Shown here piece by piece: positions 5,199 through 58,660 of a DNA stretch of 64,000 nt. The stretch is from Burkholderiales bacterium PBB3 (GTDB taxonomy: Bacteria; Pseudomonadota; Gammaproteobacteria; Burkholderiales; Burkholderiaceae_C): NCBI GenBank assembly GCA_002256115.1, contig NKIK01000003.1, forward strand, positions 194,280-258,279. Reading direction: 5' to 3'. Both the position numbers and the translations under genes were made by a program. The notes under the pieces are model-generated. The model ran no database searches. It saw only the letters and a program-made list of their open reading frames with translations, and was not told the origin of the DNA. How positions within the stretch are numbered: the stretch's first letter is position 1; every line of letters starts with the position of its first letter.

Positions 5199-5803
5199 AG
5201 GGCCTGATCATGCAGCAAACTGCGCAGGGCCGCCGCATCGCCCCGGGGACTGCGACCGCGGTGGTCGGGTTTCAGGGCGCCGCGCAGGTCGTCAAAGTCG
5301 TAAATCAGCAGGTGCACGCCCACGTGCTCCCCCAGCTCCGCGCTGCGCGCCTGGATGCTCAAGGCCTCCACCCGCTCGCCGGTAAAGCCGGTGACGGTGC
5401 TGGGGTCATAACGCACGCCCAGGTCGATCAGACCGATCTCCGCAGATTTGGGGTCATCGCAAAACAATTGCAGGTAAATATCTGAGCGGCGCGTGGCCGT
5501 GCCATGCCAGACCGCGCCGCCAATATAGGGGCGAAACCGCTGCAGCCGGTCCATCCAGCCCAATGCCAGACCGCGCAGCGCGCGCAGCTCCTGCGGCTGG
5601 GTGTCGGCACAAAACAGCGCGATGTAGTCCTCTACATGCGCTTCCAACAGCGCGTTGTCGGGCAAGGCGGTGCGCTCGGGCAGGCCGAGCTGCTTCACAG
5701 CGCGGCGTTTGGCTCCGCCATATTCCAAACCCTCTTCCACCACCAGGCGGGCGGCCACGGCGGCAATTTCTTCTTTCAAGGTATCCATAGGAACATTGTG
5801 CAT
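5195..5803 (-). CDS. Conserved hypothetical protein of 202 aa. Overlaps the tlpA-like gene by 4 bp, so probably co-transcribed.
   Basis: A clean ORF with GC3-rich codon usage. I recognise no diagnostic motif. Confidence 0.5.
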   Translation of the reverse strand: MHNVPMDTLKEEIAAVAARLVVEEGLEYGGAKRRAVKQLGLPERTALPDNALLEAHVEDYIALFCADTQPQELRALRGLALGWMDRLQRFRPYIGGAVWHGTATRRSDIYLQLFCDDPKSAEIGLIDLGVRYDPSTVTGFTGERVEALSIQARSAELGEHVGVHLLIYDFDDLRGALKPDHRGRSPRGDAAALRSLLHDQAL

Positions 5804-5839
5804 GCACTGCGTTCGACCTAGTTTGCTACAGTTTTAGGT

Positions 5840-6390
5840 TGCGGTAGGAGCGGAGGTTACCCCCCTCGCCCCCCCGCACAGATCCGTACGTGCGGAATTA
5901 CCGCATGCGGCTCTTGCCTCAGGTAGGTGACGCATAGAAACGATCCTCCGGGTAAGGGTGCAAACTGCGTATGGGTGGTATGAACCGCTGGGCAATACGG
6001 CTGAACCTGCATCATGGCATCTTGGGCTTCTGGCTTCTATGGCTTGGGGCCTTGCCTGTTCCGCCCGTGCCGCGTGGCTCGGGCACCGATGAGATCTCCC
6101 AGCTTCCGAGTAGATCGCTTCCCGGCATGCTCAGGGTCTCAGACCGCGCGGGGTCACAGCATGTCTTGCGATTGACGTCATGCTGCGTGTTGCCTTCTGG
6201 CATAGCAACACCATGGGCACCCCGATTGAATGATTTCGCGGCTCAATGGCTGGCCTGCTGGTCTCCCCTGTCAACGCTTCGATCCACACATCGCGGTGTG
6301 CAACGCATGACTCGGGGCCAGAGTGAGTTCGCTATTTTTTCCCTGTATTGGACTTCCACCAACTACGATCCACCGCCTTTGCCGGCGCAC
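5840..6390 (-). mobile_element. Candidate ORF-less or degenerate group II intron on the minus strand. Domain V sits at 5913-5882 and a GUGCG 5' end at 6390-6386.
   Basis: The reverse complement of 5885-5913 is GAGCCGCATGCGGTAATTCCGCACGTACGG, against the group II DV consensus GAGCCGUAUGCG..CGCACGUACGGUUC. AGC triad and CGUACGG are conserved. The roughly 550-bp stretch is non-coding, and GTGCGCCGGC lies directly 3' of a repeat copy. Confidence 0.3.
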
Positions 6391-6391
6391 T

Positions 6392-6430
6392 GCTATATAT
6401 TTAATAGCTTCTCCCGCACTATCCACAGCC
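6392..6430 (+). repeat. Dispersed repeat family copy 1, a variant (gctatatatttaatagcTTCTCCCGCACTATCCACagcc)
   Basis: Shares the core CTCCCGCACTATCCAC with 10 other copies. Confidence 0.8.
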
Positions 6431-6439
6431 TGAATGGCC

Positions 6440-6990
6440 GGTTTGGCTTAAATCCAAGGGGTAATCCCCCGGCTGTGCCGGGGTGACAGTAGAAGTTTGA
6501 CATTTGCGTTGGTATGGGTGTTCATCGCAGAAACTTCCAATCGTGAGCCGCCAAGCACACGAAAGGAAAAGAGGCGATGGACAAGATAGAAAACCTAAAC
6601 CACACGAAGTGGGACTGCAAGTACCACGTAGTGTCCATACCGAAGGATCGAAGAAAAGTACTGTACGGGCAATTGAGAGTGCACCTCGGAGAGGTATTTC
6701 GGGGGCTGGCCCAACACAAGGAGAGCCAGATAGAGGAAGGGCATTTAATGGCCGACCACGTCCACATGATGATCTCGATACCGCCGAAATACACGGTGTC
6801 CAACGTGGTGGGTTACATCAAGGGGAAAAGCGCGATACACCTAGCTCGGGTGTATGGGGAGAGAAAGAGAAATTTCACGGGGCAAAGCTTCTGGGCGCGG
6901 CGTTACTTTGTCTCGACCGTGGGATGAGACGAGGTATAGCCGCTTTGAGCGGCTCACAATATTGAAAACCCCCGGCTTTGCCGAGGGATG
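6440..6990 (+). mobile_element. IS200/IS605-family element remnant: subterminal hairpins at 6466-6485 and around 6943-6985, flanking tnpA
   Basis: Hairpin cccggctgtgccggg lies upstream of tnpA. Hairpins agccgctttgagcggct and cccggctttgccgagg lie downstream. Confidence 0.45.
6577..6927 (+). pseudogene. tnpA: IS200-like Y1 (HuH) transposase TnpA, C-terminally truncated. It stops right after ..YFVSTVG, so the catalytic Tyr helix appears to be missing.
   Basis: MDKIENLNHTKWDCKYHVVSIPKDRR...ADHVHMMISIPPKY...FWARRYFVSTVG aligns with Salmonella IS200 TnpA up to DTVG. IS200 TnpA continues about 30 aa further, through the Y-x-x-x-Q helix. Confidence 0.65.
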
Positions 6991-6996
6991 GTTATT

Positions 6997-8100
6997 TCAC
7001 ACCAAGCTAGCCAAGGCCGCCGGTGAAAAGTCAGACAGCTCGCTGGTGCGGCCATCGCGCACTTTCAGTGCCCAGTCCGGGTCACTGATGAGGGCGCGGC
7101 CCACGGCTACCAAGTCAAAGTCGCCGCGGTCAAAGCGGCGCATCAACTCGTCCAGCGACGCGGGCTTGGAGCTTTCGCCACCAAAGGCGGCGATGAATTC
7201 ACCGCTCAGGCCCACCGAGCCGACGGTGATGGTCGGGCGGCCAGTGAGCTTTTTGGCCCAACCGGCAAAGTTGAGGTCAGAGCCTTCAAACTCGGGCTCC
7301 CAGAAACGGCGTTGCGAGCAATGGAAGATATCCGCACCTGCGTCGGCCAGGGGCTGCAGCCAGGCGGCCATTTCATCGGGCGTTTGCGCCATGCGCGCGG
7401 TGTAGTCTTGCTGCTTCCATTGCGACAGGCGAATGATGACCGGATAGTCGGGCCCCACTTCAGCACGCACCGCTTTCAAAATATCGGCCGCAAAGCGCCC
7501 GCGTGCCACCAAGTCGCTGCCGCCGTAGCGGTCGGTGCGCGTGTTCATGCCGTCCCAGAAGAACTGGTCGATCAAGTAACCATGCGCACCGTGCAGCTCG
7601 ATGCAATCAAAACCCAGGCGCTTGGCGGCACCGGCGGCCTTGGCAAAGGCGGCAATGGTGTCGGCGATGGCCGAGTCTGTCATGGGTTCACAAAACGCCT
7701 TGCCCGGCTTGGACAGGCCAGATGGGCCGTCCCACGGCATAGGTGGCAGCCAGTCGATGCGGCGGTTAGGCACAGCGCCCACATGCCAGAGCTGCGGTGC
7801 CATCACGCCACCGGCGGCATGCACGGTGTTGATGACGTCTTGCCAACCGGCCAGCGCGTCGTCGCCCCAAAAGCGGGGCACATTGGGGTCGTTGCTAGAG
7901 GCGGGGCGCTCAATCACCGTGCCCTCGGACACGATCAAACCAACTGCCGATGCAGCGCGCTTGCGGTAATACTCGCTCACGTCCTTGGTGGGCACGCCGC
8001 CGGGTGAAAAAGAGCGTGTCATGGGGGCCATGACAATGCGGTTGGCGAGCTTGAGGCTCTTCAGGGCGAAGGGTTGGAACAGCGGTGCAGCGTTAGACAT
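6997..8100 (-). CDS. Old Yellow Enzyme family NADH:flavin (FMN) oxidoreductase / alkene reductase
   Basis: N-terminus LFQPFALKSLKLANRIVMAPMTRS and the TIM-barrel OYE signature, 367 aa. Confidence 0.8.
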   Translation of the reverse strand: MSNAAPLFQPFALKSLKLANRIVMAPMTRSFSPGGVPTKDVSEYYRKRAASAVGLIVSEGTVIERPASSNDPNVPRFWGDDALAGWQDVINTVHAAGGVMAPQLWHVGAVPNRRIDWLPPMPWDGPSGLSKPGKAFCEPMTDSAIADTIAAFAKAAGAAKRLGFDCIELHGAHGYLIDQFFWDGMNTRTDRYGGSDLVARGRFAADILKAVRAEVGPDYPVIIRLSQWKQQDYTARMAQTPDEMAAWLQPLADAGADIFHCSQRRFWEPEFEGSDLNFAGWAKKLTGRPTITVGSVGLSGEFIAAFGGESSKPASLDELMRRFDRGDFDLVAVGRALISDPDWALKVRDGRTSELSDFSPAALASLV

Positions 8101-8250
8101 ACAGGCAAAAGGTGAAAGAGTTGCAGATCAAACCAGTTTACGTGGGCTGGCGGGGGCGCGTGGCGCGCAGGGTCTCCCAGGCTACAGCGGCAAACTCTCT
8201 GGTTAGACTGGCCATTACGCAGGTCATTTGAATGTCTAAGCACGCTACTC

Positions 8251-8282
8251 ATTTGATAGCTGCTCCCGCACTATCCACGGGC
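8251..8282 (+). repeat. Dispersed repeat family copy 2 (atttgatagcTGCTCCCGCACTATCCACGGgc)
   Basis: Core match; sits 50 bp upstream of hsdM. Confidence 0.85.
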
Positions 8283-8332
8283 TGGAAGGCGTATTTCTAT
8301 ATGAAAACTTTAGAATTAAAACTGTCACATTC

Positions 8333-10633
8333 ATGAAAAATCTCGACGCCTTTAAGGCCCACGGCGACGTCATCTGGAACATTGCCAACCTGCTGCGCGG
8401 CCCCTACCGCCCACCGCAGTACCGCCGAGTCATGATTCCCCTCACCGTGCTGCGCAGGCTGGACTGTGTGCTGGAAGCCAGTAAAGACGCCGTCATCAAG
8501 TACCACAAGCAGCTCAAAGAGCAAACAGACAAAGACGGTAAACCCAAGTACGACACCGAAACCATTGAAAAAATGGTCTTCCACAAGTTCAAATTGGCGT
8601 TCTTCAACACCAGCGAATTCACCTTTCAAACCCTGCTGGGGGACCCCGACAAGCTAGTCGCCAACCTGGCGAACTACATGGCCGGCTTTTCCACCCGTGC
8701 CCGCAAGATCATTGAAAAGTTTAAGTTTGAGGAAGAGATCGACAAACTTGAAGAAGCCAACCGCCTGTTTGATGTGGTCAAGCAAGTGGCTGCAGTGGAC
8801 CTGCACCCTGACACCATTCCCAACATTGCCATGGGCTACTTGTTTGAGGACTTGGTGCGCCGCTTTAACGAGCAGGCCAACGAAGAGGCGGGGGACCACT
8901 TCACGCCGCGTGAAGTCATCAAGCTCATGGTGAACCTGCTGTTCACCCATGACGATCTGGTGTACCGCAAGGCCAAACTCATCAAGATTTATGACCCGAC
9001 CTGTGGCACGGGCGGCATGTTGTCGGAGTCTGAAAAGGTCATCAAAGATCCGGAGACGGGTTTGAACCCCAGCGCCGATGTGCGCCTATTCGGCCAAGAG
9101 TACAACCCCGAGTCTTATGCCATCTGCGGCTCCGACTTGATGATCAAAGATGAGGATGTCAAAAACATCGTCTTTGGCGACACGCTAGGTACCGGCAAGC
9201 TCAAGGAAGGCTTTGCTGATGGCGATGGCCACCCAGATGAGCACTTTCACTTCATGCTGGCCAATCCGCCCTTTGGCGTGGAATGGAAGCCTGAAAAAGA
9301 CTTTGTCACCAAAGAGCACGACGCCTTTGGCTTTAAGGGCCGCTTTGGCCCCGGCTTGCCGCGCATCAACGACGGCGCGCTGCTCTTTTTGATGCACATG
9401 ATCTCCAAAATGCAGCCCGCACCCGAGAAAGGTGGCGAGGGCTCGCGTATTGCCGTTGTCTTCAACGGCTCGCCGCTATTCACCGGCGATGCGGGCAGTG
9501 GCGAGAGCAACATCCGCCGCTGGATCATTGAAAACGACATGCTCGAAGCCGTCATCGGCCTGCCCGACCAGCTCTTCTACAACACCGGCATCTACACCTA
9601 TGTGTGGATCGTCACCAACCGCAAGACCGAGCAGCGCAAAGGCCGGGTGCAGCTCATCAACGCCACCGACTTTGCCTGGAAGATGAAGAAAAGCCTGGGC
9701 GACAAACGAAAGCGCATGGGCGATGGCACCGATGGCACGCCCGACCATCTGGCCGCCATCACCCGCCTGTATGGCGACTACGTCCACAACGTGCGCAAGA
9801 CCGTGGCCGAGATTCAAACCAACATCGACCAACGCGGCGAATCTAAACGCGACCAAACCAAAAGCCAATGCGTCAGCAAGATTTTTGACAACCAAGACTT
9901 TGGCTTTCTCAAGATCACCGTAGAGCGCCCTCTGCGCTTGAACTTTGCCGTGACGCCAGAGCGCATTGCCCGCGTGCAAGCCACTGACGCATTTACCGAC
10001 CTGGTAGTCTCACGCAAACGCAAAGACAAAAAAGCCATTCAAGAGCAAATTTTGGTGGGCGAAGCTGCGCAGCAGGCCATTCTGAAAGTGCTGCACGGCA
10101 TGCAAGACGCATTTGCCAATGGCGGACTGGTCAAAGATCGCAGCGTATTTGAGTCACTTGTGAATGACGCTTTTGCAGCAGACGGCATAGAACTGGACAG
10201 CAAGCTCAAAACCGCCTTCTTGTCCGCAGGTGGCTTGGCAGACAAAGACCCCAGCGCCGAAATTTGTTACAACAAAAAAGGCCAGCGCGAGCCCGACGCT
10301 GACCTGCGCGACACAGAGAACGTGCCCCTGCCCCCCGGCATCGCGCTGCCCCTGCCGCTGGACTATGAGAGCAAAAAGAACAAAGGCAAGGTGGACACCG
10401 CGCCCCTGCTGAAACTGGTGCAAGCCCACTGCGAGGCATACCTGGCCAATGAAGTGCTGCCCTACCGGCCCGATGCGTGGATAGACCACAGCAAAATCAA
10501 AGTGGGTTACGAAATTCCTTTCAATCGCCACTTCTATGAATACGAGCCTCCCCGCCCGCTGGAGGATATTGAGGCCGACATCCTGGCGCTGGAAAAAGAC
10601 ATCATGGCGATGCTGAAGGCCGTGACGGCATGA
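8333..10633 (+). CDS. hsdM: Type I restriction-modification system, N6-adenine DNA methyltransferase subunit
   Basis: Motif I YDPTCGTGGML and motif IV MLANPPFGVEWK, 766 aa. Confidence 0.9.
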   Translation: MKNLDAFKAHGDVIWNIANLLRGPYRPPQYRRVMIPLTVLRRLDCVLEASKDAVIKYHKQLKEQTDKDGKPKYDTETIEKMVFHKFKLAFFNTSEFTFQTLLGDPDKLVANLANYMAGFSTRARKIIEKFKFEEEIDKLEEANRLFDVVKQVAAVDLHPDTIPNIAMGYLFEDLVRRFNEQANEEAGDHFTPREVIKLMVNLLFTHDDLVYRKAKLIKIYDPTCGTGGMLSESEKVIKDPETGLNPSADVRLFGQEYNPESYAICGSDLMIKDEDVKNIVFGDTLGTGKLKEGFADGDGHPDEHFHFMLANPPFGVEWKPEKDFVTKEHDAFGFKGRFGPGLPRINDGALLFLMHMISKMQPAPEKGGEGSRIAVVFNGSPLFTGDAGSGESNIRRWIIENDMLEAVIGLPDQLFYNTGIYTYVWIVTNRKTEQRKGRVQLINATDFAWKMKKSLGDKRKRMGDGTDGTPDHLAAITRLYGDYVHNVRKTVAEIQTNIDQRGESKRDQTKSQCVSKIFDNQDFGFLKITVERPLRLNFAVTPERIARVQATDAFTDLVVSRKRKDKKAIQEQILVGEAAQQAILKVLHGMQDAFANGGLVKDRSVFESLVNDAFAADGIELDSKLKTAFLSAGGLADKDPSAEICYNKKGQREPDADLRDTENVPLPPGIALPLPLDYESKKNKGKVDTAPLLKLVQAHCEAYLANEVLPYRPDAWIDHSKIKVGYEIPFNRHFYEYEPPRPLEDIEADILALEKDIMAMLKAVTA

Positions 10634-16381: not shown

Positions 16382-18717
16382 GACGCCTCCTTGCTATTCT
16401 TTTAGTAGCTGCTCCCGCACTATCCACGGCCCCAGCAGCGCATTCGGCTAGTTTTTCGGAGGTCAAAGCGGCTTACCAACCGTCGGACACGCTAATTCTG
16501 GACCGCCGAGGGGAGGTGATTCACCGCATCCGCACCGATGCCACGGTGCGCCGTGGCCAGTGGGTGGCCTTGGCGGATGTGTCGCCCGCCTTGCGCACGG
16601 CGCTGGTGTTGAGTGAAGACAAGCGTTTTTACGAACACAGCGGGGTAGATTGGCAAGCCGTGTCCAGCGCGGCCTGGGGCAATCTGTGGAACAGCAAAAC
16701 GCGCGGCGCGTCCACCATCACCATGCAGCTCAGTGGCTTGCTGGATGACGACCTGAAACGCGGTAGCGGCGGGCGCAGCGTGGTGCAAAAGTTGGGGCAA
16801 ACCGTGTCGGCCACGGTGCTGGAGCGGAGCTGGCGCAAAGATCAAATTTTGGAAGCCTACCTGAATCTGGTGCCGCTCAAAGGCGAGCTGGTGGGCATAG
16901 ACGCGCTAAGCCGCACCCTGTTTGGCAAGGCCGCGCACGGCCTGGACAACCGCGAGGCTGCCGTGGCCGCCGCCCTGGTGCGCGCGCCCAATGCCAAAGC
17001 GCCCCAAGTGGTGCAGCGCGCCTGCAGCGTGCTGCAAGCGCTGCAAAAAGCGGGCAATGCAGATTGCGAGGCGCTGGATTTGTTTGTGACTGGTGCGCTC
17101 TCGCGGCGCGACTATGAGGCCAGCAGCGGGCTGGCACCGCATGTGGCGGTGCAGGTGACGAAAGCGCTTCAAGCAGGGCCAGCAAACGGTGGGATTGGGG
17201 AAAGCTCGGCTGCGAAGTTGCCTGCCAAGTTAGTGAGAGCCAGCACCATCATCACGACGACTTTGCGCGCACCCTTGCAGCGCTTTGCCGTGCAAACCCT
17301 GCAAACCCATTTGCGTGAACTCAGTGGCCGCCATTTGGAAGACGCCGCGCTGGTCGTGCTGGACAACGCCGGCGGCGAGGTGCTGGCCTGGGTCGGGTCC
17401 TCCGGGCCACTCAGCCGCGCAGAAGACGTGGACTTTGTCACCGCGCTGCGCCAGCCAGGCTCTACGCTCAAGCCGTTTTTGTATGCGCAGGCGATTGCCG
17501 AGCGGCGCATCACCGCCGCCTCCCTCTTGGAGGACTCGGATGCCCAAATACAGACCAGCGGCGGCCTGTATATCCCGCAAAACTACGACCGCCACTTCAA
17601 AGGCTGGGTATCGACCCGCACGGCGCTAGGCGCATCGCTCAATGTGCCGGCCGTGCGCACGCTGGTCATGGTGTCGCCCGACGCGTTTCAAAAACAACTG
17701 GTGGCGCTGGGCCTGCCGCTGAAGGAAAGCGGCGACTTTTATGGCTACAGCCTGGCGCTGGGCAGCGCCGAGGTGTCGTTGCTGAATCTGAGCAATGCCT
17801 ACCGCGCTTTGGCCAATGGCGGGCGCTACAGCCCCACCCGCCTGACGCTGGCGGCACCCGTGGCTACGCAGCGCAGCACACGCACCCCACTCACTGCAGC
17901 CGCTTTGCCCCCCAGCCGCCAGGTGCTGGACCCGCGCGCGGCATTCATCGTGGGCGATATCTTGAGCGACCCCCTGGCCCGCGCCCGCAGCTTTGGCACC
18001 GACAGCGTGCTGGCCACCCGCGCCTGGACGGCCGTGAAAACCGGCACTAGCAAAGACATGCGCGACAACTGGGCCGTGGGCTACTCCCAGGCCTACACCG
18101 TGGGTGTGTGGGTGGGCAATGCCAGCGGCGCGCCGATGTGGGATGTGAGCGGCACCACCGGCGCGGCACCAATCTGGGCGGCGACGATGAACTACCTGCA
18201 CGCCAAACAGCCCAGCCGCGCGCCCAAGCCACCAGCGGGTGTGGTGCAGGCCGCAGTGCAATTTGCCAACCCCACGCCCGGCGGCGGCGCGGCTTCTGGC
18301 ACCGCAGCCCTGGTTAGCAGCACCGAAGCCGCGCGCCAGGAGTGGTTTATTGCAGGCACACAGCAAAGTGCATTTGCTATGAAAACAGGAGCTTCTCCCG
18401 CACTATCCACGGCCTACAAAGCACATAACACCAGTAACGCCCAAGACAGCGCCAGCGCCCGCATCACCAGCCCCACGCACGGCACCATCATCGCGTTGGA
18501 CCCCGACATCCCCCCCAAAGCCCAACGCCTGAGCTTCAGCGCCGAAGGCAGTGGCCTGCGCTGGAAGATGGACGGCAAAGTATTCGCCAGCGGCAACGCC
18601 GCCCAGTGGCTGCCCTGGCCGGGGCGGCATGTGGTGCAGATTGTGGACAGCAAGGGCAAGGTGCTCGATGAGATCAAACTCGAAGTGCGCGGGGCGGGGG
18701 TGGTGGCTAAGCGATAG
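16378..18717 (+). CDS. pbpC: Penicillin-binding protein 1C (GT51 transglycosylase plus transpeptidase plus PbpC C-terminal domain). Both termini contain in-frame copies of the dispersed repeat.
   Basis: GT51 motifs EDKRFYEHSGVD and GASTITMQL, transpeptidase KTGTS, 779 aa. Confidence 0.8.
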   Translation: MRRLLAILLVAAPALSTAPAAHSASFSEVKAAYQPSDTLILDRRGEVIHRIRTDATVRRGQWVALADVSPALRTALVLSEDKRFYEHSGVDWQAVSSAAWGNLWNSKTRGASTITMQLSGLLDDDLKRGSGGRSVVQKLGQTVSATVLERSWRKDQILEAYLNLVPLKGELVGIDALSRTLFGKAAHGLDNREAAVAAALVRAPNAKAPQVVQRACSVLQALQKAGNADCEALDLFVTGALSRRDYEASSGLAPHVAVQVTKALQAGPANGGIGESSAAKLPAKLVRASTIITTTLRAPLQRFAVQTLQTHLRELSGRHLEDAALVVLDNAGGEVLAWVGSSGPLSRAEDVDFVTALRQPGSTLKPFLYAQAIAERRITAASLLEDSDAQIQTSGGLYIPQNYDRHFKGWVSTRTALGASLNVPAVRTLVMVSPDAFQKQLVALGLPLKESGDFYGYSLALGSAEVSLLNLSNAYRALANGGRYSPTRLTLAAPVATQRSTRTPLTAAALPPSRQVLDPRAAFIVGDILSDPLARARSFGTDSVLATRAWTAVKTGTSKDMRDNWAVGYSQAYTVGVWVGNASGAPMWDVSGTTGAAPIWAATMNYLHAKQPSRAPKPPAGVVQAAVQFANPTPGGGAASGTAALVSSTEAARQEWFIAGTQQSAFAMKTGASPALSTAYKAHNTSNAQDSASARITSPTHGTIIALDPDIPPKAQRLSFSAEGSGLRWKMDGKVFASGNAAQWLPWPGRHVVQIVDSKGKVLDEIKLEVRGAGVVAKR
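16393..16430 (+). repeat. Dispersed repeat family copy 3, in-frame in the pbpC N-terminus (encodes ..[12 protein letters not shown]..)
   Basis: Sequence gctattcttttagtaGCTGCTCCCGCACTATCCACGGCc. Confidence 0.85.
18376..18413 (+). repeat. Dispersed repeat family copy 4, in-frame in the pbpC C-terminal region (encodes ..TGASPALSTAYKAH..)
   Basis: Sequence gctatgaaaacaggaGCTTCTCCCGCACTATCCACGGCc. Confidence 0.85.
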
Positions 18718-27172: not shown

Positions 27173-28471
27173 GTGCCATCGCCCTCCCCCACCATCCGCC
27201 GCATTGCCCACCTGGACATGGACGCGTTTTACGCGTCGGTAGAGCTGCTGCGCTACCCGCAACTCAAAGACCTGCCGGTGGTGATAGGCGGTGGGCGCGC
27301 GAATGTGGCGGCAGCCCTGGAGGTACTGCGCCAGCAAGCCGCAGAAGACGCGCCCGAGCTGGAGTGGGATGCCGCCGCGCAGCGCGCCGCACTGCGCCGC
27401 ATTCCCATCGATGCGTTTGCTCGCCTGGCGGACTACACCGGCCGCGGTGTGATCACCACCGCCACCTATGCCGCGCGCCAGTTTGGTGTGGGCTCGGCCA
27501 TGGGTCTGATGAAGGCCGCCAAGCTGTGCCCGCAGGCCATTCTTTTGCCGGTAGATTTTGAAGAATACCGGCGCTACTCGCGCCTGTTCAAATCCATCAT
27601 CACCGAGATTGCACCGCTGATGGAGGACCGCGGCGTGGACGAGGTCTACATCGACTTCACCGACGTGCCCGGCGGCCAGCGCGAGGGCGGCCGCGTGCTG
27701 GCGCGTCTGATTCAAAAGGCGATTTTGGACGCGACTGGTCTGACTTGCTCAGTGGGCGTGGCACCCAACAAACTGCTGGCCAAGATGGCCAGCGAATTCA
27801 ACAAGCCGCGCGGCATCTCTATCGTGTTTGAGGCCGATGTGCCGACCAAGGTGTGGCCGCTGGCCTGCCGCAAGATCAACGGCATTGGCCCTAAGGCGGA
27901 CGAGAAGCTCAAGCGCTTTGGTATTGAAACGATTGGCCAACTGGCCGAGCGTGATTTGCAGTGGCTGATGGATACCTTTGGCCAGCGCACTGGAGCCTGG
28001 CTGCACGCCGCCAGCCACGGCCAGGACGACCGCCCGGTGGTGACGGAAAGCGAACCCGTGAGCCTGAGCCGCGAGACAACTTTTGAGCGCGACCTGCACG
28101 CCGTGCGCGACCGCGCCGAGCTGGGGGCAGTCTTCACCCGCCTGTGCGAGCAGGTGGCGGCCGACCTGCAGCGCAAGGGCTACGTCGGCAAAACTATCGG
28201 CATCAAGCTGCGCTATGACGATTTCAGCGGCGTGACGCGCGACCTGACGGTGGAGCAGTACACCGACGATGCAAAAACCATCCGCCAACTGGCTGGCCAG
28301 TGCCTGAAACGCGCGCCGCTGCAGAAGAAGCTGCGGCTGCTGGGTGTGCGCGTGGGGGCGCTGGCAAACCGTGCCGACCTCCCTGGATTAATAGCCAAAA
28401 GTGCCTTGCAGGCCGTGGATAGTGCGGGAGCAGCTCCTGAATTAATAGCGGTTAACGGGGAGCTCTTTTAA
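27173..28471 (+). CDS. dinB: DNA polymerase IV (Y-family). Start is uncertain: GTG 27173 or ATG 27116. The C-terminus is extended by an in-frame dispersed-repeat copy.
   Basis: IAHLDMDAFYASVE, with the catalytic DMD at the N-terminus and Y-family palm/fingers motifs. The last roughly 25 aa (..[19 protein letters not shown]) are repeat-encoded. Confidence 0.85.
   Translation: MPSPSPTIRRIAHLDMDAFYASVELLRYPQLKDLPVVIGGGRANVAAALEVLRQQAAEDAPELEWDAAAQRAALRRIPIDAFARLADYTGRGVITTATYAARQFGVGSAMGLMKAAKLCPQAILLPVDFEEYRRYSRLFKSIITEIAPLMEDRGVDEVYIDFTDVPGGQREGGRVLARLIQKAILDATGLTCSVGVAPNKLLAKMASEFNKPRGISIVFEADVPTKVWPLACRKINGIGPKADEKLKRFGIETIGQLAERDLQWLMDTFGQRTGAWLHAASHGQDDRPVVTESEPVSLSRETTFERDLHAVRDRAELGAVFTRLCEQVAADLQRKGYVGKTIGIKLRYDDFSGVTRDLTVEQYTDDAKTIRQLAGQCLKRAPLQKKLRLLGVRVGALANRADLPGLIAKSALQAVDSAGAAPELIAVNGELF
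28384..28470 (-). repeat. Dispersed repeat family copy 5, a long form with internal direct repeats (ctggattaatagc...cctgaattaatagc)
   Basis: Sequence ..gccaaaagtgccttgcagGCCGTGGATAGTGCGGGAGCAGCTCCtgaattaatagcggttaacgggg. Confidence 0.85.
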
Positions 28472-34577: not shown

Positions 34578-34922
34578 CTACTGGTCTGTGGCGACGCCCA
34601 GCCGCCACAGCGACGTCACCTCTTTGGAGCGTGCTGCGTGCGGCGGGTCGGTGGCCACGATCCGGCCGATTCCCCGGCGCGCCAGCACCGCCAACAAAAC
34701 ACCGGTGCCCGTGCCAATATCAAAGGCGCACAGGGCCGCCACCGAAGCCACGCTAACGGCGCCGGGTGGGCCCCAGGCCTCTGCACAAGCCTGACGCGCA
34801 TCGGGGCTGCGCTTCAGAGGGACACTGTAGTCAGCCTCAAAGCCAATCAACAGCATGCCCAGCACGCGAGAGCGCTGGGCTTGGCGATGCAGATGGAAGC
34901 CTGCGGCAAAACTAAGTGCCAA
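34578..34922 (-). pseudogene. Internally deleted fragment of a class I SAM-methyltransferase, paralogous to the gene at 47407-48771
   Basis: The 114-aa ORF matches ..FHLHRQAQ.RARVLGMLLIGFEADY..KR.PDARQACAEAWGPPG.., the AFDIG.GTGVL.AVLARRG.G.IVATD segment and the C-terminal ..VTSLWRL.VA of the 467-aa ORF, but lacks everything in between. It starts right next to a repeat copy. Confidence 0.6.
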
Positions 34923-34925
34923 ATC

Positions 34926-34995
34926 GGCCTTTGAAGCCGTGGATAGTGCGGGAGCAGCTCCTGAATTAATAGCGGTTAACGGGGAGTTGTTTTAG
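34926..34995 (-). repeat. Dispersed repeat family copy 6
   Basis: Sequence ggcctttgaaGCCGTGGATAGTGCGGGAGCAGCTCCtgaattaatagcggttaacgggg. Confidence 0.85.
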
Positions 34996-36847: not shown

Positions 36848-36915
36848 TAGATTAGTGGCCAAAAGTGCCTTTCAACCGGCGATAGTGCGGGGGCAGCTCC
36901 TGAATTAGTAGCAAT
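36848..36915 (-). repeat. Dispersed repeat family copy 7, a slightly diverged long form
   Basis: Sequence ctagattagtggccaaaagtgcctttcaaccGGCGATAGTGCGGGGGCAGCTCCtgaattagtagc. Confidence 0.8.
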
Positions 36916-44303: not shown

Positions 44304-46466
44304 TTACTCGGGTTTCTGGCCACTTTTGTTGGTCTTGGACAGCAAGGAGGCAATCGCCAGGTCTTTCAGCTCGCCCGACGAGTTGCCGAGCGACCCGACC
44401 AGTTGCCCCAGGTCGTCCACCATATTGCGTTTGCCCGACAGGTGATCTTTCAGCCCGATCTTCAGCGTATCGCTCTTGGCGATAGCGCCGTCGATGCCCT
44501 TGCCCACCGCCAGCGCACTGACGAAACGCTCGAAGTAGCTGCCGTCGCCGCCCACCATCTCGATCTTGGCATTGGCCAGTGCTTTGCCCAGGACTTCGGC
44601 CTGCTCTTTGGCGATGGCGGTTTGTGCATCGATGCCCTTGAGGGTCTCGGTATGCGCCATCTCCAGCCGCATGCGGTATTCCTCGTGGTCGCGCGTTTCG
44701 CTGCTCATGGCCTTCATGGCTTCAAACTTCTCGCGCAGGCCCTTGGCCTCTGCAGAGAAGCGTGCTTGCACGTTCTGGGCATCAGCTTCGCCTGCCTTGA
44801 TCGTGGCTTCGGCTCCGGCGGTGCGCACAGCCACTTCGGCCAGGCCCAGTTTCTCTTTGCCTTGCGCTTCAGCTTCCAGTTTGGCCTGCAGGCCCGTGGC
44901 TTCGGCTTGCGCGCGCGCTTCGATCACCTGCGCGTCTGCCAGGCCGGCTTTGATGGTGGCTTCCACGCCCGCTGTACGCACCGCCACATCGGCCAGGCCC
45001 AGCTTCTCTTTGCCTTGCGCTTCAGCCTGGTTACGCGCCTCAATCACATGCACATCCGACAGACCCTTTTTCTCGGTGGCGTCGGCAGTCACCATCATCA
45101 CGCGGGCGGCCGCCAGGCCAGGGGCGGCACTCACTGCCTCCATGCCTTCCGCCTCCCGCTTTTTGGACTCGGCGTTCTTCTCTGACACCTTGAGTCGCGC
45201 ATCCGCCATGGCGACTTCTTCGCTAGCTTTGTGGCGTGCACTGCGTTCTTGCGACTCTGCCGCCTTCACTTCCGCAATCATTTTTTCTTCGGCCTGACCT
45301 TCAGCCAGGATGATGGTGGAGCGCTTGGTGCGCTCTGCCTCCGCTACCACGCGCAGTTCCTTGATGGCTTCTTCTTGCTCGGCCACGGTGCGGTCCACCA
45401 CGATGCGTTCGCGGATCACGTCGGCAATGGCTTTCTTTTGCACCTCCAGCGCGCGTTCTTTGTCGATCTTCTGCAGGGCCACTTCTTTCTCGCGGTCCAC
45501 CACTTCCAGGTCGCGCGCACGAATCACTTTTTCTTCTTCAATGGCCACCGCGCGCTTGCGGTTGTTCTCGGCCACTTCTTTTTCGCGCAATGCGTTTTCG
45601 TTTTGCACTGCTACCTGCTGCTCGCCTTGCAGGCGCGCCATCTCGGATTTGGTGCGTTCCTCAGATTGGATCTTGGAAGTCTCGGCCTCTTCGCGAGCGC
45701 GCATGGTGGCCACTTCCCGCTGCTGGCGGGCTTGGGCGTCGGCGGCCTGGCGATCCAGCTCCAGCATGGTCTCCTGGGTTTCCACGTTTTTCTTCTTGAT
45801 CTGCATCTCTTCGTTGCGGCGCAGCTCGTTGGTGCGCACGCTCTCCACCGCCGTCAGCTCGGTGATTTTCTTGATGCCCTGGGCGTCCAGAATATTGCTC
45901 GCGTCCAGCTTGGACACCGGTGTTTGCTCCAGGTAGTCAATGGCAGCATCTTCGAGCACATAGCCCGACAGGTCGTCGCCAATCTGGCGAATGATTTCGT
46001 CGCGGAAATGGTCGCGCGCCTGGTACAGGTCCACAAATTCCATGGACTTGCCCACGGTTTTGAGCGCCTCTGAAAACTTGGAGGAGAACAGGTCTTCCAA
46101 CGCATCCTGGTTGGAGGCTCGCTCGCAGCCCACGCCTTGGGCGACCTTCAAAACGTCTTCCGCGGTTTTGTTGACGCGTACGAAAAACTTGACCTTGATG
46201 TCGGCGCGGATGTTGTCCTTGCAGATCAGCCCTTCGCGGCCCGAACGGTCAATCTCAATGGTCTTGACCGAGATGTCCATCAACTCGGCCTTGTGGATGA
46301 TGGGGTAGACCATGCAGCCTGTGAAAGTGACCGTAGGCTCAGCGCGCATGGTGTTCACGATCAGGGCGTGGCCCTGCTCAATCTTCCGGTAAAAGCGCGC
46401 AAACAATACAAACATGCCGAACACGATGACCGTGATGACGGCTGCTGCGACGATGATGGGTTCCAT
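44304..46466 (-). CDS. yqiK: Flotillin-like SPFH/Band-7 protein (YqiK-like) with a long C-terminal coiled coil containing tandem approximately 40-aa repeats
   Basis: N-terminal TM plus SPFH domain (HALIVNTMRAEPTVTFTG...IRADIKVKFFVRV) and Ala/Glu-rich repeats such as EAQGKEKLGLADVAVRTAGVEATIKAG. Confidence 0.8.
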   Translation of the reverse strand: MEPIIVAAAVITVIVFGMFVLFARFYRKIEQGHALIVNTMRAEPTVTFTGCMVYPIIHKAELMDISVKTIEIDRSGREGLICKDNIRADIKVKFFVRVNKTAEDVLKVAQGVGCERASNQDALEDLFSSKFSEALKTVGKSMEFVDLYQARDHFRDEIIRQIGDDLSGYVLEDAAIDYLEQTPVSKLDASNILDAQGIKKITELTAVESVRTNELRRNEEMQIKKKNVETQETMLELDRQAADAQARQQREVATMRAREEAETSKIQSEERTKSEMARLQGEQQVAVQNENALREKEVAENNRKRAVAIEEEKVIRARDLEVVDREKEVALQKIDKERALEVQKKAIADVIRERIVVDRTVAEQEEAIKELRVVAEAERTKRSTIILAEGQAEEKMIAEVKAAESQERSARHKASEEVAMADARLKVSEKNAESKKREAEGMEAVSAAPGLAAARVMMVTADATEKKGLSDVHVIEARNQAEAQGKEKLGLADVAVRTAGVEATIKAGLADAQVIEARAQAEATGLQAKLEAEAQGKEKLGLAEVAVRTAGAEATIKAGEADAQNVQARFSAEAKGLREKFEAMKAMSSETRDHEEYRMRLEMAHTETLKGIDAQTAIAKEQAEVLGKALANAKIEMVGGDGSYFERFVSALAVGKGIDGAIAKSDTLKIGLKDHLSGKRNMVDDLGQLVGSLGNSSGELKDLAIASLLSKTNKSGQKPE

Positions 46467-47153: not shown

Positions 47154-47337
47154 TGTTCTCCCTCTTATATGGCTAAGCGCCGTTTTGCCGCGATGTTAGC
47201 CAATCTGGCCCGCGGCGGGCCCGTTTTCTACGGGCTTGCGGATATTGTGTGCAATAAATTGGCCCCACAGCGCAAAAGCCATCTTGGGCTTAGGGGCCTT
47301 GGCAGCCGCGCAATTTAAATGAATTCAAGCTGTAGAG

Positions 47338-47385
47338 CCCATGGATAGTGCGGGAGCAGCTTCTGAATTGATAGCAATCAATAAC
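47338..47385 (-). repeat. Dispersed repeat family copy 8
   Basis: Sequence gctgtagagCCCATGGATAGTGCGGGAGCAGCTTCtgaattgatagc. Confidence 0.85.
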
Positions 47386-47406: not shown

Positions 47407-48771
47407 CTAGCGTGCGGGTGCCACCGCCAACCGCCACAGCGAGGTGACCTCTAGCGCACGCGCCGCGTGCAGCGGGTCGGCCGCATCAAAGGCCTTGCCA
47501 TGCACCGGCTTGGTATCCAGCCGCCCCAGCACCTGCAGGCCCGCGCCAGCAATCGCGTCCAACAATTCAGCGCGGCTGCGCAGGCCCAGGTGTTCGGCCA
47601 AATCCGAGAGGATCAGCCAGCCCTCGCCCTGCGGCTCCAAGTGCGCGGCCAGGCCCGCCAAAAAGCCCAGCAGCATAGCGCTGCCTTCGTCATACACCGC
47701 GTGCTCTATGGGTGAGCTGGGCCGGGCGGGTAGCCACGGCGGGTTGCACACGATCAGATGCGCCAGCCCTGGCGGGAATAGGGATGTCTGCAACAACTGC
47801 ACCGGCGAATCAGCGCGGCCCGCCACGCCCAGCCTCTGCAAATTTTCAGCCGCGCAGGCCAGGGCGCGCGGGTCCAGATCGGTGGCCACGATATGGCCCA
47901 CACCCCGGCGCGCCAGCACCGCAGATAACACGCCCGTGCCCACACCAATGTCAAACGCCGTCAGCTTGGCGGCGGCCTGCGCACCGTGGGCTCCTTGGAC
48001 TCCTTGGACTACTTGGACACTTGGCAGCGGTGCCTGCTGCACCAAGCTCACATACTCACCCCGCTGCGGAGAAAACACGCCGTAGTGCGGGTGGATGCGG
48101 TTGTGGGGCGCAGCGCCCAGGGCGGGCACTTCCACACCGTTTTTGCGCCACTCGTGCGCGCTGATCAGGCCCAGCAGCTCACGCAATGACGCTACCGAAG
48201 CCACAGCGTCCGCACCCGGCGGGCCCCAAGCCTCAGCACAGGCCTGGCGCGCATCGGGGGCGCGCTTGAGTGCGATACCGTAATCCGCCTCAAAGCCAAT
48301 CAGAAGCATGCCCAGCACGCGCGCACGCTGCGCCTGGGCTTGGCGGTGCAAATGAAAGGCAGTGGCCGGATTCGATGCCTTTTCGGCCACTGAGGCCGTG
48401 GATAGTGCGGGAGCAGCTCCTGAATTAATAGCATTGCGCTCTGGCGCGCCCGCTAGTTGCTTTGCCCTCTTGATGGCCTTGGCACCCTTGGCGGCTTTGC
48501 CGCTGGGGCCCGACGCATCGGCCCGCCGCGCGAGCGCCTGCAGCATCTGCCGCGCGTTTTGAAAATCACCCCGCCACAGCAGCGCCGTGCCTTCGCAGGC
48601 CAGGCGGTAAGCGACATCGGCGCTCAGGGTGTCATCGGCCAGCACCACGCGCTTGGGTGGGCTGACACCACGCTCTGAGCGCCACTGCGCGCTGCAGGGC
48701 TGGCCGGCTTCTTGCCAGTGGATGCGGGCTTCGCCCGATGTTGGTGAAGTCGTCATAAGTTCAGTAGCCAT
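47407..48771 (-). CDS. Class I SAM-dependent methyltransferase (MTS-type small domain, NPPW motif) with an N-terminal domain of unknown function. A dispersed-repeat copy lies in-frame at 48365-48435.
   Basis: SAM fold FDIGVGTGVLSAVLARRG..ATDLD and motif IV LIVCNPPWLP. The repeat encodes ..[17 protein letters not shown].. Start taken at MATEL.. to limit overlap with ccdB. Confidence 0.65.
   Translation of the reverse strand: MATELMTTSPTSGEARIHWQEAGQPCSAQWRSERGVSPPKRVVLADDTLSADVAYRLACEGTALLWRGDFQNARQMLQALARRADASGPSGKAAKGAKAIKRAKQLAGAPERNAINSGAAPALSTASVAEKASNPATAFHLHRQAQAQRARVLGMLLIGFEADYGIALKRAPDARQACAEAWGPPGADAVASVASLRELLGLISAHEWRKNGVEVPALGAAPHNRIHPHYGVFSPQRGEYVSLVQQAPLPSVQVVQGVQGAHGAQAAAKLTAFDIGVGTGVLSAVLARRGVGHIVATDLDPRALACAAENLQRLGVAGRADSPVQLLQTSLFPPGLAHLIVCNPPWLPARPSSPIEHAVYDEGSAMLLGFLAGLAAHLEPQGEGWLILSDLAEHLGLRSRAELLDAIAGAGLQVLGRLDTKPVHGKAFDAADPLHAARALEVTSLWRLAVAPAR
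48365..48435 (-). repeat. Dispersed repeat family copy 9, inside the methyltransferase ORF
   Basis: Sequence gatgccttttcggccactgagGCCGTGGATAGTGCGGGAGCAGCTCCtgaattaatagc. Confidence 0.85.
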
Positions 48772-51653: not shown

Positions 51654-52549
51654 GGCCGCGTGCCTAACAAGTGCGAGGTCAGGGCCTCCACAATTTGGCG
51701 CACCGGCTCGGGCGGCAGATCGTGGCCCATGCCGTCAATGGTGAGCAGGCGTGCGCCGGGAATGCGGCGTGCCGTGTCTTCGCCATTGCCCAGCGGCACC
51801 AGGGGGTCCGCCTTGCCATGGATCACCAAGGTGCGGCTGGTGATGGACGCCAAGGCCTCCGCCCGCCCGGTGTCGGCCACGATGGCCAGCATCTGGCGCA
51901 GCGTGCCCACCGGGTGAAAACTGCGCTTAACGCCGATGGCAATGCGCTCGCGCATTTCGGTCTCGGGCACCGGGTAGGCCGGGCTGCCAATGATTTTGAA
52001 CAAGGCGACAAAATGGTCCATGGCTGCCGCCGGGTTGCGGGCGGGGCGCTTGAGCATGGCGCGCAGCACTTCTGGCCGGGCCTGGGGCAGGCCGCGTGCA
52101 CCGCTGCTGCTCATGATGCTGGTCAGACTCAGCACCCGCTTGGGCGCGGCGATGGCCACGCGCTGGGCAATCATGCCGCCCATGCTGACGCCCACCACAT
52201 GGGCGTATTTGATTTTTAGGGTGTCGAGCACGCCAATGGCGTCCTGCGCCATATCAGTCAGGGTGTAAGGGGGCTTGGTGCCCAGGCCCAGCTTGAATTT
52301 CAAGGTAGCCCACAGCAGGCTGGGTTTGCCCAGGTGGTCAAAGTGCTGGCTCAGGCCAATGTCGCGGTTGTCCATGCGGATCACGCGAAAGCCCGCGTCC
52401 ACCAGCGCCTGCACCATCTGCGGCGGCCAGGCCACCAGTTGCATGCCCAGCCCCATGATCAGCAAGACCACCGGTTGGCTGGCCGATGCGGGCTTGCCGT
52501 TGGCACTGTCTTCAATCTCGATATCGATACCATTTGCTCTGATTTTCAT
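51650..52549 (-). CDS. Alpha/beta-hydrolase fold protein
   Basis: Nucleophile elbow GVSMGG, HGxxD context, 299 aa. Confidence 0.75.
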
Positions 52550-52575
52550 AGCTGCTCCCGCATATTTACAGGGCC
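52545..52575 (+). repeat. Dispersed repeat family copy 10, degenerate (tagcTGCTCCCGCAtatttacaGGgcc)
   Basis: Partial core match. Confidence 0.5.
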
Positions 52576-53394: not shown

Positions 53395-53490
53395 GCGGCA
53401 TTATCCCGATTGGCAGGCACCCCAACGCGGCCCCGGCCCGTGCCCTGGAGTGTTGCCAGGCGCAGAATCGGCCACCCAGGCCCTCAAATT

Positions 53491-53555
53491 TAAGCCAAAT
53501 CAGCCGTTCAGGCCGTGGATAGTGCGGGAGCAGCTCCTATTTTTATAGCAATCGA
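53491..53555 (-). repeat. Dispersed repeat family copy 11
   Basis: Sequence agccaaatcagccgttcagGCCGTGGATAGTGCGGGAGCAGCTCCtatttttatagc. Confidence 0.85.
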
Positions 53556-53606
53556 TGCTACACATCGGCACCGGTAAAATCATCGGTCGCTCACAAGAGA
53601 ACCCCC

Positions 53607-58575: not shown

Positions 58576-58660
58576 GCCCGGGTGGTGGAATTGGTAGACG
58601 CACGGGACTCAAAATCCCGCGCCGCAAGGCGTGCCGGTTCGATTCCGGCCCCGGGCACCA
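58576..58660 (+). tRNA. tRNA-Leu (anticodon CAA), 85 nt including CCA
   Basis: Cloverleaf with a long variable arm; anticodon loop CUCAAAA; closely similar to E. coli tRNA-Leu(CAA). Confidence 0.9.

Follow-up and report, generated by a model that had tools for sequence, protein, structure and literature searches.

The window analysed here is the whole 64,000-nt stretch of Burkholderiales bacterium PBB3, and our subject is a gap of about 550 bp between a copy of a dispersed repeat and a conserved gene for a 202-aa protein. On the far side of the repeat copy lie an IS200-type transposase fragment, a flavin oxidoreductase gene and a type I restriction-modification gene. By its Rfam matches and by comparison with related elements, the gap holds a group II intron deprived of its reverse-transcriptase (RT) gene. 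The intron runs on the minus strand from 6390 to 5838, measures 553 nt, begins with GUGCG and ends with CCGCAAC, and its insertion site lies 35 nt upstream of the 202-aa gene. An earlier note had proposed that a group II intron of some 550 nt, either without an open reading frame (ORF) or decayed, lies at this position, and Rfam matches to both halves of the element bore this out. The parts of the intron and of its exons are listed below; here and throughout, L numbers denote the loci compared, and DI to DVI are the ribozyme domains.

5838..6390, minus strand: whole intron, 553 nt (Rfam matches to both halves, termini of relatives, orthologous empty sites).
6134..6356, minus strand: DI core (full-length match to RF02005, group-II-D1D4-6).
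6201..6207, minus strand: loop of exon-binding site 1 (EBS1), UGCUAU(G), pairing with exon positions -7..-1, UAUAGCA, and covarying with a sister lineage.
6225..6231, minus strand: candidate EBS2, AUUCAAU, in a 13-nt internal loop of DI, with 6 of 7 pairs to exon positions -15..-9.
6039..6133, minus strand: DII, DIII and proximal DIV, collinear with L006 and L005 up to the deletion junction 6039/6038 (alignment, BLAST).
5922..6038, minus strand: remnant of the intron-encoded protein (IEP), last ~39 codons, end of domain X and C-terminal tail (tblastn; translation compared by eye with L006).
5880..5913, minus strand: DV with AGC triad, 2-nt bulge and 5-nt loop UAAUU (RF00029 alignment, relatives, folds).
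5841..5878, minus strand: DVI with a bulged branch-point A at 5845, 7 nt from the 3' splice site (RF00029 alignment, RNAfold).
6391..6460, minus strand: 5' exon, a resident copy of the dispersed repeat (repeat family, DNA fold, orthologous empty copies).
6408-6392, minus strand: terminal hairpin GCTAT-TAAATAT-ATAGC in the 5' exon (DNA fold; same loop in empty L029-31 and L041).
6396-6391, minus strand: intron-binding site 1 (IBS1), AUAGCA, the last six 5'-exon bases.
5824..5837, minus strand: first 14 nt of the 3' exon, CTAAAACTGTAGCA, containing the ancestral repeat terminus TGTAGCA (filled-versus-empty alignment).
Exon junction expected from splicing: ...AUAUAGCA joined to CUAAAACUG, also written ...AAAUAUAUAGCA joined to CUAAAACUGUAGCA.

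We scanned the whole window against Rfam at gathering thresholds, and the 1.1 kb from 5600 to 6700 in a second, permissive scan. The first scan returned two matches only, one to a tRNA and one to RF02005; the latter, on the minus strand at 6356-6134, covers the entire model with 166.6 bits (gathering threshold 49; E = 2.6e-48). In the second scan RF00029, which comprises DV and DVI, was likewise matched over its full length, at 5915-5838 on the minus strand (37.6 bits; E = 1.5e-5 in the 1.1-kb search), and the 3' end of this match falls exactly at 5838. Both termini align with those of relatives of 1,913-1,926 nt, and the 5' end, GUGCGCCGGC from 6390 downward, aligns base for base with the 5' ends of full-length relatives. 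It follows directly on ...ATATAGCA, the end of repeat copy 6391-6460, as had been described before. The features by which group II ribozymes are recognised are present: GUGCG at 6390-6386 corresponds to the GUGYG terminus, the RF02005 match together with the UGCUAU/AUAGCA pairing provides a DI with its EBS1 loop, and DV has the length of about 34 nt, the AGC triad and the 2-nt bulge, with a score below the gathering threshold and one C.A mismatch. In DVI, where a bulged A is expected 7-8 nt from the 3' end of an intron ending in AY, we found an A at 5845, 7 nt away, and the end ...AAC. The minus-strand string that had been read as DV carries its triad and bulge, and only its end needed correction by one position, the 30-nt GAGCCGCAUGCGGUAAUUCCGCACGUACGG spanning 5913-5884 rather than ending at 5885. 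The earlier note had also said that it would yield to the lack of an Rfam match, of foldable DI and DVI structures and of any full-length relative; instead, both intron halves matched Rfam, DVI folded with a bulged A at the expected place, 7 nt before the intron end, and full-length relatives proved to be numerous. A 171-aa plus-strand ORF at 5971-6486 overlaps the intron and was judged spurious, having no Pfam match and lying antisense to the ribozyme. The tRNA gene, which has a long variable arm, is at 58576-58657 (RF00005, 55.1 bits).

The IEP has been lost by a clean internal deletion. None of the ORFs of the element encodes an IEP or RT, in agreement with the earlier note. A BLAST search of plasmids for distant matches gave thousands of relatives, the best being rhizobial and Pseudomonas introns annotated with ltrA. 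In an alignment with four of these, the element is collinear with the full-length introns (1,910-1,912 nt) from nt 1 through DI-DIII; it has nothing in alignment columns 428-1793, and collinearity returns about 110 nt ahead of DV. The missing segment amounts to ~1.37 kb of RT/maturase ORF and the parent element to ~1.9 kb. Closer relatives were obtained by a pattern scan of species-representative genomes and metagenomes for invariant DI blocks plus the UGCUAU EBS1. They come from a Rhodoferax metagenome-assembled genome (MAG), a Georgfuchsia MAG and several metagenome contigs, and these introns of 1,913-1,926 nt are ~87% identical to the one described here. BLAST against them placed both deletion breakpoints at window position ~6038. 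With their IEPs as queries, tblastn found the final 39 residues of the protein encoded at 6038-5922, with 74% identity and E = 5e-14, and gave no further RT or IEP match in the 64-kb window; within this remnant a TGG codon has become an in-frame TGA stop at 6014-6012. The remnant codons and the collinearity with full-length relatives show that the intron is a natural ΔORF derivative and was not ancestrally ORF-less. Its former description as ORF-less or decayed is right for its present state, but needs to be amended for its origin, since the last 39 IEP codons are still in place.

The IEP of the relatives matches TIGR04416, RVT_1 and GIIM, that is RT and maturase, and its profile matches include no HNH or endonuclease domain. 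A 23-mer spanning the deletion junction (...AAGCCAT/AGAAGCC..., the slash marking the junction) was absent from the metagenome contigs searched, and no other ORF-less member was found among about 20 copies of the lineage. One plasmid match, H1, was considered as a second ORF-less copy of ~500 bp and rejected, because its two halves belong to different full-length introns standing in tandem, DV/DVI to the first and DI to the next. A Roseibium plasmid carries an 897-nt decayed relative.

Some observations concern the full-length relatives themselves. In L002 (3530-5356), L003 (3540-5336), L006 and L009-L012, a frame is open from DI (intron nt ~30-150) into the RT over 561-608 codons, and the Prokaryotic Genome Annotation Pipeline (PGAP) places the ltrA start inside DI in full-length class E relatives; the open frame may be a translated extension or a by-product of GC content. 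The stop codon of the IEP frame lies in the DV loop in L002 and L003. Class E introns stand head to tail in tandem at L001 (1162-5105), L022 (428-2459) and L028, the GTGCG of one intron forming the 3' exon of the previous one, and this arrangement occurs in both the CGCUUA and the UGCUAU lineages.

Judged by ribozyme family, the intron is assigned to bacterial class E (IIE) and not to class D, F or C, and the sequence identities of the relatives' IEP are in line with this. A second, disrupted intron on the S. meliloti GR4 plasmid pRmeGR4b matches RF02005 at 145.4 bits, and its RT fragment is 58-59% identical to the lineage IEP. A review by Toro (PMC5894124) gives the disrupted pRmeGR4b intron as class E S.me.I4. 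From the rhizobial best matches we had at first assumed RmInt1 and class D. RmInt1, which also resides on pRmeGR4b, matches RF01999, and its 419-aa IEP ends in ...NPGLFVHW and is ~30% identical to that of the lineage. The C-terminal motif of class D IEPs, LX3AX3PXLF[V/A]HW (PMC4615759), is absent, the lineage IEP and the remnant both ending in ...RF(M/I)PPIR..HPYPE(E/D)RFYAS.T. Moreover, the S. meliloti match was to a different intron of 1,910 nt, and the class D assignment was dropped. For class F (g3), we took Ni.ha.I1 from Nitrobacter plasmid 1 by the coordinates in Table S2 of Toro & Martínez-Abarca. It matches RF02003 (D1D4-4), and its IEP and ribozyme are only 33% and ~55% identical, which speaks against class F; it also disposes of the idea that Rfam D1D4-1 to -7 stand for classes A to F in alphabetical order, so that -6 would be class F. 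A IIC ribozyme, with its reduced DI, short EBS1 and no EBS2, does not fit either, the best family being RF02005 with a full EBS1 loop and an internal loop at the position of EBS2. The 5-nt DV loop UAAUU and the length of 553 nt agree with the hallmarks given for IIE and IIF introns, whose DV loop has 5 nt and whose ribozyme, the IEP not counted, measures 450-700 nt (PMC3753933). Since this is the normal range in class E, 553 nt is an ordinary size, and the earlier suggestion of an unusually short element, set against a range of about 600-900 nt for ORF-less introns, does not hold. In a separate case, L007 (1303-1807), an RF02003-type, class F-like DI fragment is followed about 170 nt farther along its strand by an RF02005-type intron, which may have inserted in or beside another intron.

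The contact between intron and 5' exon is well defined for EBS1. Within the intron, a single stretch is perfectly complementary by Watson-Crick pairing to AUAGCA, the six bases that end the exon, namely UGCUAU at nt 184-189 (6207-6202). In the same alignment column a sister lineage has TAAGCG facing exon CGCTTA, and this covariation between loop and exon identifies the UGCUAU loop as EBS1. The candidate EBS2, AUUCAAU, forms a mean of 4.5 of 7 pairs with exon positions -15..-9 across 17 exons and peaks only there (2-3.1 at other offsets), a signal that is confounded by the palindromy of the hairpin. Contiguous EBS2-IBS2 pairing of at least 5 bp was found in no member of the UGCUAU lineage; in the sister lineage, by contrast, this loop pairs over 5-7 bp. 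Since the +1 exon base varies, EBS3-IBS3 is unconstrained.

The sister class E lineage (EBS1 UAAGCG; L001, L002, L003 and L015) has a hairpin-like motif of its own before the intron, (A)AGGYGCG-n-GAAWT-n-GCGCTTA/C, with the slash at the insertion point. Its sites lie on Rhizobium, Sinorhizobium and Pseudomonas plasmids, always with C at +1 and with an EBS2 pairing of 5-7 bp, and the upstream motif may be another repeat or the end of an insertion sequence (IS).

The repeat that forms the 5' exon is ~60-75 nt long. The window has at least 11 copies of it, which lie in either orientation.

6391-6460, 8243-8305, 16391-16450, 18374-18424, 52534-52562: repeat copies in one orientation.
28377-28456, 34901-34980, 36854-36912, 47303-47382, 48360-48439, 53477-53556: repeat copies in the other orientation.

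Its core is GCCGTGGATAGTGCGGGAGCAGCT..ATAGC, and no Rfam family corresponds to it. Repeats of the same architecture, TAGCCC..AGCTATT-loop-AATAGCA, are present in Polaromonas, Rhodoferax and metagenome contigs, each species having its own sequence. All copies in the window end in ...[AT]TAGC[AG], after which their flanks diverge, so the intron sits exactly at the repeat end. We sampled insertion sites through homologues of the lineage IEP and their contigs, plus pattern matches, and obtained 16 distinct 5' exons of UGCUAU-type introns from Rhodoferax, Polaromonas, Georgfuchsia and metagenome contigs. Without exception, these exons have TAGC and one further base at their end. At 13 sites, including the one described here, a 5-7-bp hairpin GCTAT(T)...(A)ATAGC has its 3' arm ending at -2, which places the intron 1 nt past the hairpin. 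The 5' exons of the lineage align ungapped as a single element of ~60 nt, with TAGCCC conserved at about -40 and AGCTATT at -19, while the 3' exons are unrelated to one another. Within the window, only 2 of the 14 ATAGCA sites bear a hairpin of this kind, and it is at the better of the two that the intron is inserted. DNA folding gave a terminal hairpin at every occupied site tested and none in the majority variant of the window repeat.

The earlier note had supposed that the repeat hairpin served as the insertion target, by analogy with class C introns. The target was correctly named: the intron lies at the exact repeat end, as do its relatives. The analogy is valid for behavior, insertion directly downstream of a stem-loop being a class C trait, though as a functional resemblance only; the ribozyme is class E and IIB-like, and its EBS1-IBS1 pairing of 6-7 bp overlaps the 3' arm of the hairpin, unlike in IIC introns.

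An EBS1 pattern match at L007 was left out of the sample as coincidental, its exon and loop context being unrelated. We also considered whether these introns are centered in inverted repeat doublets (REPIN-like) and rejected this as a general rule, a significant inverted copy being found in the 3' exon of L019 only. There, 13 nt of the repeat body recur in inverted form without a mismatch (ACAAGGGCTACAG), which puts the intron at the center of an inverted doublet, unlike at other sites. Elsewhere in the window, a segment of ~300 nt is duplicated with ~80% identity (34591-34884 versus 47420-48337, 13 kb apart), each copy being followed by a copy of the dispersed repeat, and the repeat finder reported a 15/18-nt periodic tandem array at 75-329 and a 153-nt tandem duplication at 44719-45024.

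Orthologous loci were identified through homologues of the downstream 202-aa protein. Six were found in which this protein is 87-95% identical; its nearest named relatives, Rhodoferax MAGs, are at ~78%. All six have the same order: a divergent mpl (Mur ligase) gene, ~100 bp, an unoccupied repeat copy, 22 nt, and then the 202-aa gene. The closest four empty copies (L029-31 and L041) carry the loop sequence of the copy described here, GCTATTAAATATGTAGC[AG]. The 5' exon is therefore the resident, orthologous repeat copy and the intron a later arrival. At L012, an empty repeat copy lies 4.7 kb from an occupied one.

Taken together, we read the element as a class E intron that lost its IEP by a ~1.37-kb internal deletion, that stems from a lineage homing to the end of a repeat resembling repetitive extragenic palindromic (REP) sequences, and that is now most likely a stranded relic; we put the probability of this reading at about 0.85. 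The parent lineage is a ~1.9-kb retroelement of Comamonadaceae-type betaproteobacteria without an endonuclease, which appears to home to one place only, 1 nt past the terminal hairpin of a ~60-nt REP-like repeat (...AGCTATT-loop-AATAGC-A, then the intron). The target would be recognised through the EBS1 loop UGCUAU, which mimics the 5' arm of the hairpin and pairs with the 3' arm and the following A (AUAGCA). Beyond EBS1, we infer that recognition probably also draws on weak pairing of EBS2 at -15..-9 and on binding of the repeat body by the protein. The deletion left DI-DIII, a DIV stub with the last 39 IEP codons, DV and DVI. A copy without its own protein is immobile by itself and would depend in vivo on a related IEP acting in trans. 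On the lineage as a whole, we lean towards a class E sub-lineage, IIB-like and endonuclease-less, that is specialised on the terminal hairpin of a REP-like repeat, its EBS1 mimicking one arm in order to invade the other. Such a lineage would be the IIB counterpart of class C targeting of terminators and attC sites, with the present ORF-less copy as a by-product.

Several results weigh against this reading or parts of it. The RF00029 score of 37.6 for DV/DVI is below the Rfam gathering threshold of 40. The class E assignment depends on our equating the disrupted pRmeGR4b intron with S.me.I4, which was drawn from a review sentence rather than from a curated alignment. Compared with every empty orthologous site, there are 14 extra nt 3' of the intron, which is not the textbook product of retrohoming. 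In DV, a U-to-C change at 5907 that is unique to this copy creates the C.A mismatch in the lower helix, with the loss of two predicted pairs, and in DI the closing pair of a GNRA loop is broken. The DV-DVI region is 86% identical to the relatives, which keep 99-100% among themselves, and this low identity suggests relaxed constraint. A promoter scan found no sigma-70-like promoter near the intron and a terminator-like hairpin follows the upstream gene, which makes transcription uncertain. Other features favor retained function: two compensatory A-U to G-C double changes specific to this intron in DI (nt 32/40 and 171/238), a DVI that by RNAfold keeps its bulged A despite several changes, and the perfect EBS1-IBS1 pairing. 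From these comparisons the copy is most likely a stranded relic whose ORF was lost in place, which is beginning to decay and is possibly still spliceable.

The alternative that fares best concerns the mode of recognition, namely that the target is read not as sequence but as a folded stem-loop in single-stranded DNA, as by class C introns at terminators and attC sites. A terminal hairpin of 5-7 bp at 13 of the 16 sites, with a loop free to vary in sequence, is what such a mechanism would produce, and so are the lack of contiguous EBS2-IBS2 pairing and the variable +1 exon base. An IEP without an endonuclease domain also implies the use of single-stranded DNA at the replication fork (PMC4615759). 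However, IBS1 lies inside the 3' arm, so that EBS1 pairing and hairpin folding would compete, and L005, L006 and L024 keep TAGCA without a hairpin, just as most repeat copies in the window keep ATAGC without one. The hairpin arms are themselves conserved sequence, and structure and sequence are inseparable here. We regard recognition of the fold as doubtful, though it deserves serious consideration.

A second alternative concerns the arrival of the intron. Rather than by reverse splicing into a canonical repeat end, it could have arrived by DNA-level transfer together with a few exon nucleotides, through template switching or gene conversion between repeat copies, or it could have entered a locally duplicated, dimeric hairpin. 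The 14 extra nt (CTAAAACTGTAGCA, 5824-5837) are a near-duplicate of the end of the repeat hairpin and are absent at all orthologous empty sites, which have a single 18-nt hairpin module and a 22-nt spacer, and the ancestral terminus TGTAGCA is now found at +8..+14 of the 3' exon. Excision of ATAGCA, the intron and CTAAAACT restores exactly GCTATTAAATATGTAGCA, the hairpin of the closest relatives. The upstream flank has been rearranged as well. Synteny with the six related loci breaks 20-40 nt beyond the repeat, in a region from ~6460 to at least 10633, and mpl is replaced by the IS200 fragment, a flavin oxidoreductase of the Old Yellow Enzyme (OYE) type (6997-8100, minus strand), a repeat copy and the type I restriction-modification gene hsdM (8333-10633, plus strand). 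The IS200 fragment region, 6462-6990, abuts the other side of the intron-hosting repeat copy. It contains a C-terminally truncated IS200/IS605 tnpA fragment at 6577-6927 on the plus strand (NF033573, 125 bits, profile positions 3-113 of 126), which is not a REP-associated tyrosine transposase (RAYT), and an IS200-like left-end hairpin at ~6466-6490 with a weak STnc490 match. By its gene order and flanks, the IS200-OYE-hsdM segment looks like an island or a rearrangement bounded by the repeat. Against a transfer at the DNA level, the window has other repeat copies with partial tandem modules behind them, so that ordinary retrohoming into a pre-existing dimer would be equally possible. The perfect IBS1 at the end of the 5' exon and the absence of any such duplication at other sites of the lineage also count against this second alternative, and we consider it unlikely.

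Still less probable is that the relic reading is wrong and that the copy is an active non-autonomous retroelement, for which a full-length class E intron elsewhere in the genome supplies RT and maturase in trans while the 553-nt copy splices and retrohomes into other repeat copies. Bacterial ORF-less introns nearly always accompany related IEP-encoding introns, and action in trans has been shown experimentally (PMC4424553), as in the complementation of RmInt2 ΔORF by its IEP (PMC4615759). Five further repeat copies in the window end in ATAGCA and could serve as targets, and the copy-specific compensatory changes and intact DVI would suit a working ribozyme. Yet there is a single copy in 64 kb despite free repeat sites, its exact deletion junction does not occur in the metagenome collection, the roughly 20 lineage copies include no second ORF-less member, and DV has a C.A mismatch within an unusually diverged DV-DVI region. 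Finally, that the DV-like string is a coincidence within ordinary intergenic DNA is hardly conceivable, for although RF00029 by itself scores slightly under its gathering threshold, it would have to coincide with an RF02005 match of E = 2.6e-48, ~87% identity to full-length introns, exact common termini and empty orthologous sites.

The element is a tidy example of the ORF-less state, with deletion junction, IEP remnant and empty orthologous sites all visible. Class D introns are known to home specifically to multicopy elements, in their case IS elements, and so are class C introns, which use terminators and attC sites. Searches of the open-access literature gave no intron lineage of IIB type or of class E with a REP-like repeat as its dedicated target, and no reported part of upstream hairpins or REP-like repeats in the targeting of IIB-type introns (PMC7923331; PMC1525189). 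If the proposed targeting is true, then the "safe-haven" strategies of group II introns would extend beyond terminators, attC sites and IS elements, with dozens of neutral landing sites per genome and with repeats acting as hotspots that gather introns, IS200 elements and islands. It would also offer a natural system for structure-versus-sequence reading of DNA by an endonuclease-less IIB-type ribonucleoprotein, account for the fragmentation of Comamonadaceae metagenome assemblies by these introns, and draw attention to an uncharacterised repeat family of ~60 nt whose architecture is conserved across several betaproteobacterial genera.

ORF-less group II introns of bacteria were reportedly treated by Simon et al. 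in 2008 and include those of Thermosynechococcus (PMC2882425; reviewed in PMC4424553). They are similar to the present intron in that DIV has no IEP ORF and in that they derive from, and presumably depend on, IEP-encoding relatives; the state is rare in bacteria. They differ in that here an IEP remnant and the exact deletion junction are visible, with no sign that the ORF-less form proliferates. Known class E introns (S.me.I4 of pRmeGR4b and Cl.be.I2; Toro et al. 2002, Nagy et al. 2013, PMC3753933) share the RF02005 match, the small IIB-like ribozyme, the 5-nt DV loop, the endonuclease-less IEP (RT and domain X) of the full-length relatives and the dominance of EBS1-IBS1, whereas this copy has no IEP and its lineage homes to a dispersed hairpin repeat. 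In vitro, class E ribozymes splice by hydrolysis, and EBS2 is dispensable for splicing (PMC3753933).

Class C and IIC-attC introns resemble the lineage in inserting directly downstream of a hairpin, with weak or absent IBS2/IBS3 constraint, an endonuclease-less IEP and many sites per genome. In contrast to them, the intron is IIE with a full EBS1 of 6-7 nt, IBS1 overlaps the 3' arm of the hairpin rather than following it, and the target is a specific repeat family instead of generic terminators. RmInt1 and RmInt2 (class D, at ISRm2011-2 and IS inverted repeats; PMC4615759) are likewise endonuclease-less and specialised on a multicopy element, with a similar layout of IBS1, a 1-2-nt linker and IBS2. 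They belong to RF01999, their IEP identity is ~30% and they have the class D motif that is absent here, and the target in our case is a non-coding repeat of ~60 nt and not an IS. REP-targeting insertion sequences (Tobes & Pareja 2006, PMC1525189) also use an extragenic palindromic repeat as a safe landing site, and here an IS200 fragment abuts the same repeat copy as the intron, but those elements are DNA transposons. In the same study, 2 of 9 group II intron copies of P. putida were associated with REP sequences (PMC1525189).

Perhaps the nearest parallel in setting is that of the class E fragments of Halorhodospira halochloris (Sonbol & Siam 2021, PMC7923331), which lie just downstream of attC-like hairpins and next to an IS200/605 element. 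According to these authors, secondary structure upstream of IIB introns had so far been credited with no role, and they only speculated that the hairpin plays one (PMC7923331). Their case consists of two 5'-truncated pieces in one cluster of attC sites lacking integron-integrases (CALIN), whereas the present one comprises about 16 independent insertions of full-length introns at a single repeat family, together with empty sites. The intron of the window is in itself ordinary, one more case of the rare but known ORF-less state, and the apparent dedication of its lineage to a hairpin repeat is the more interesting part.

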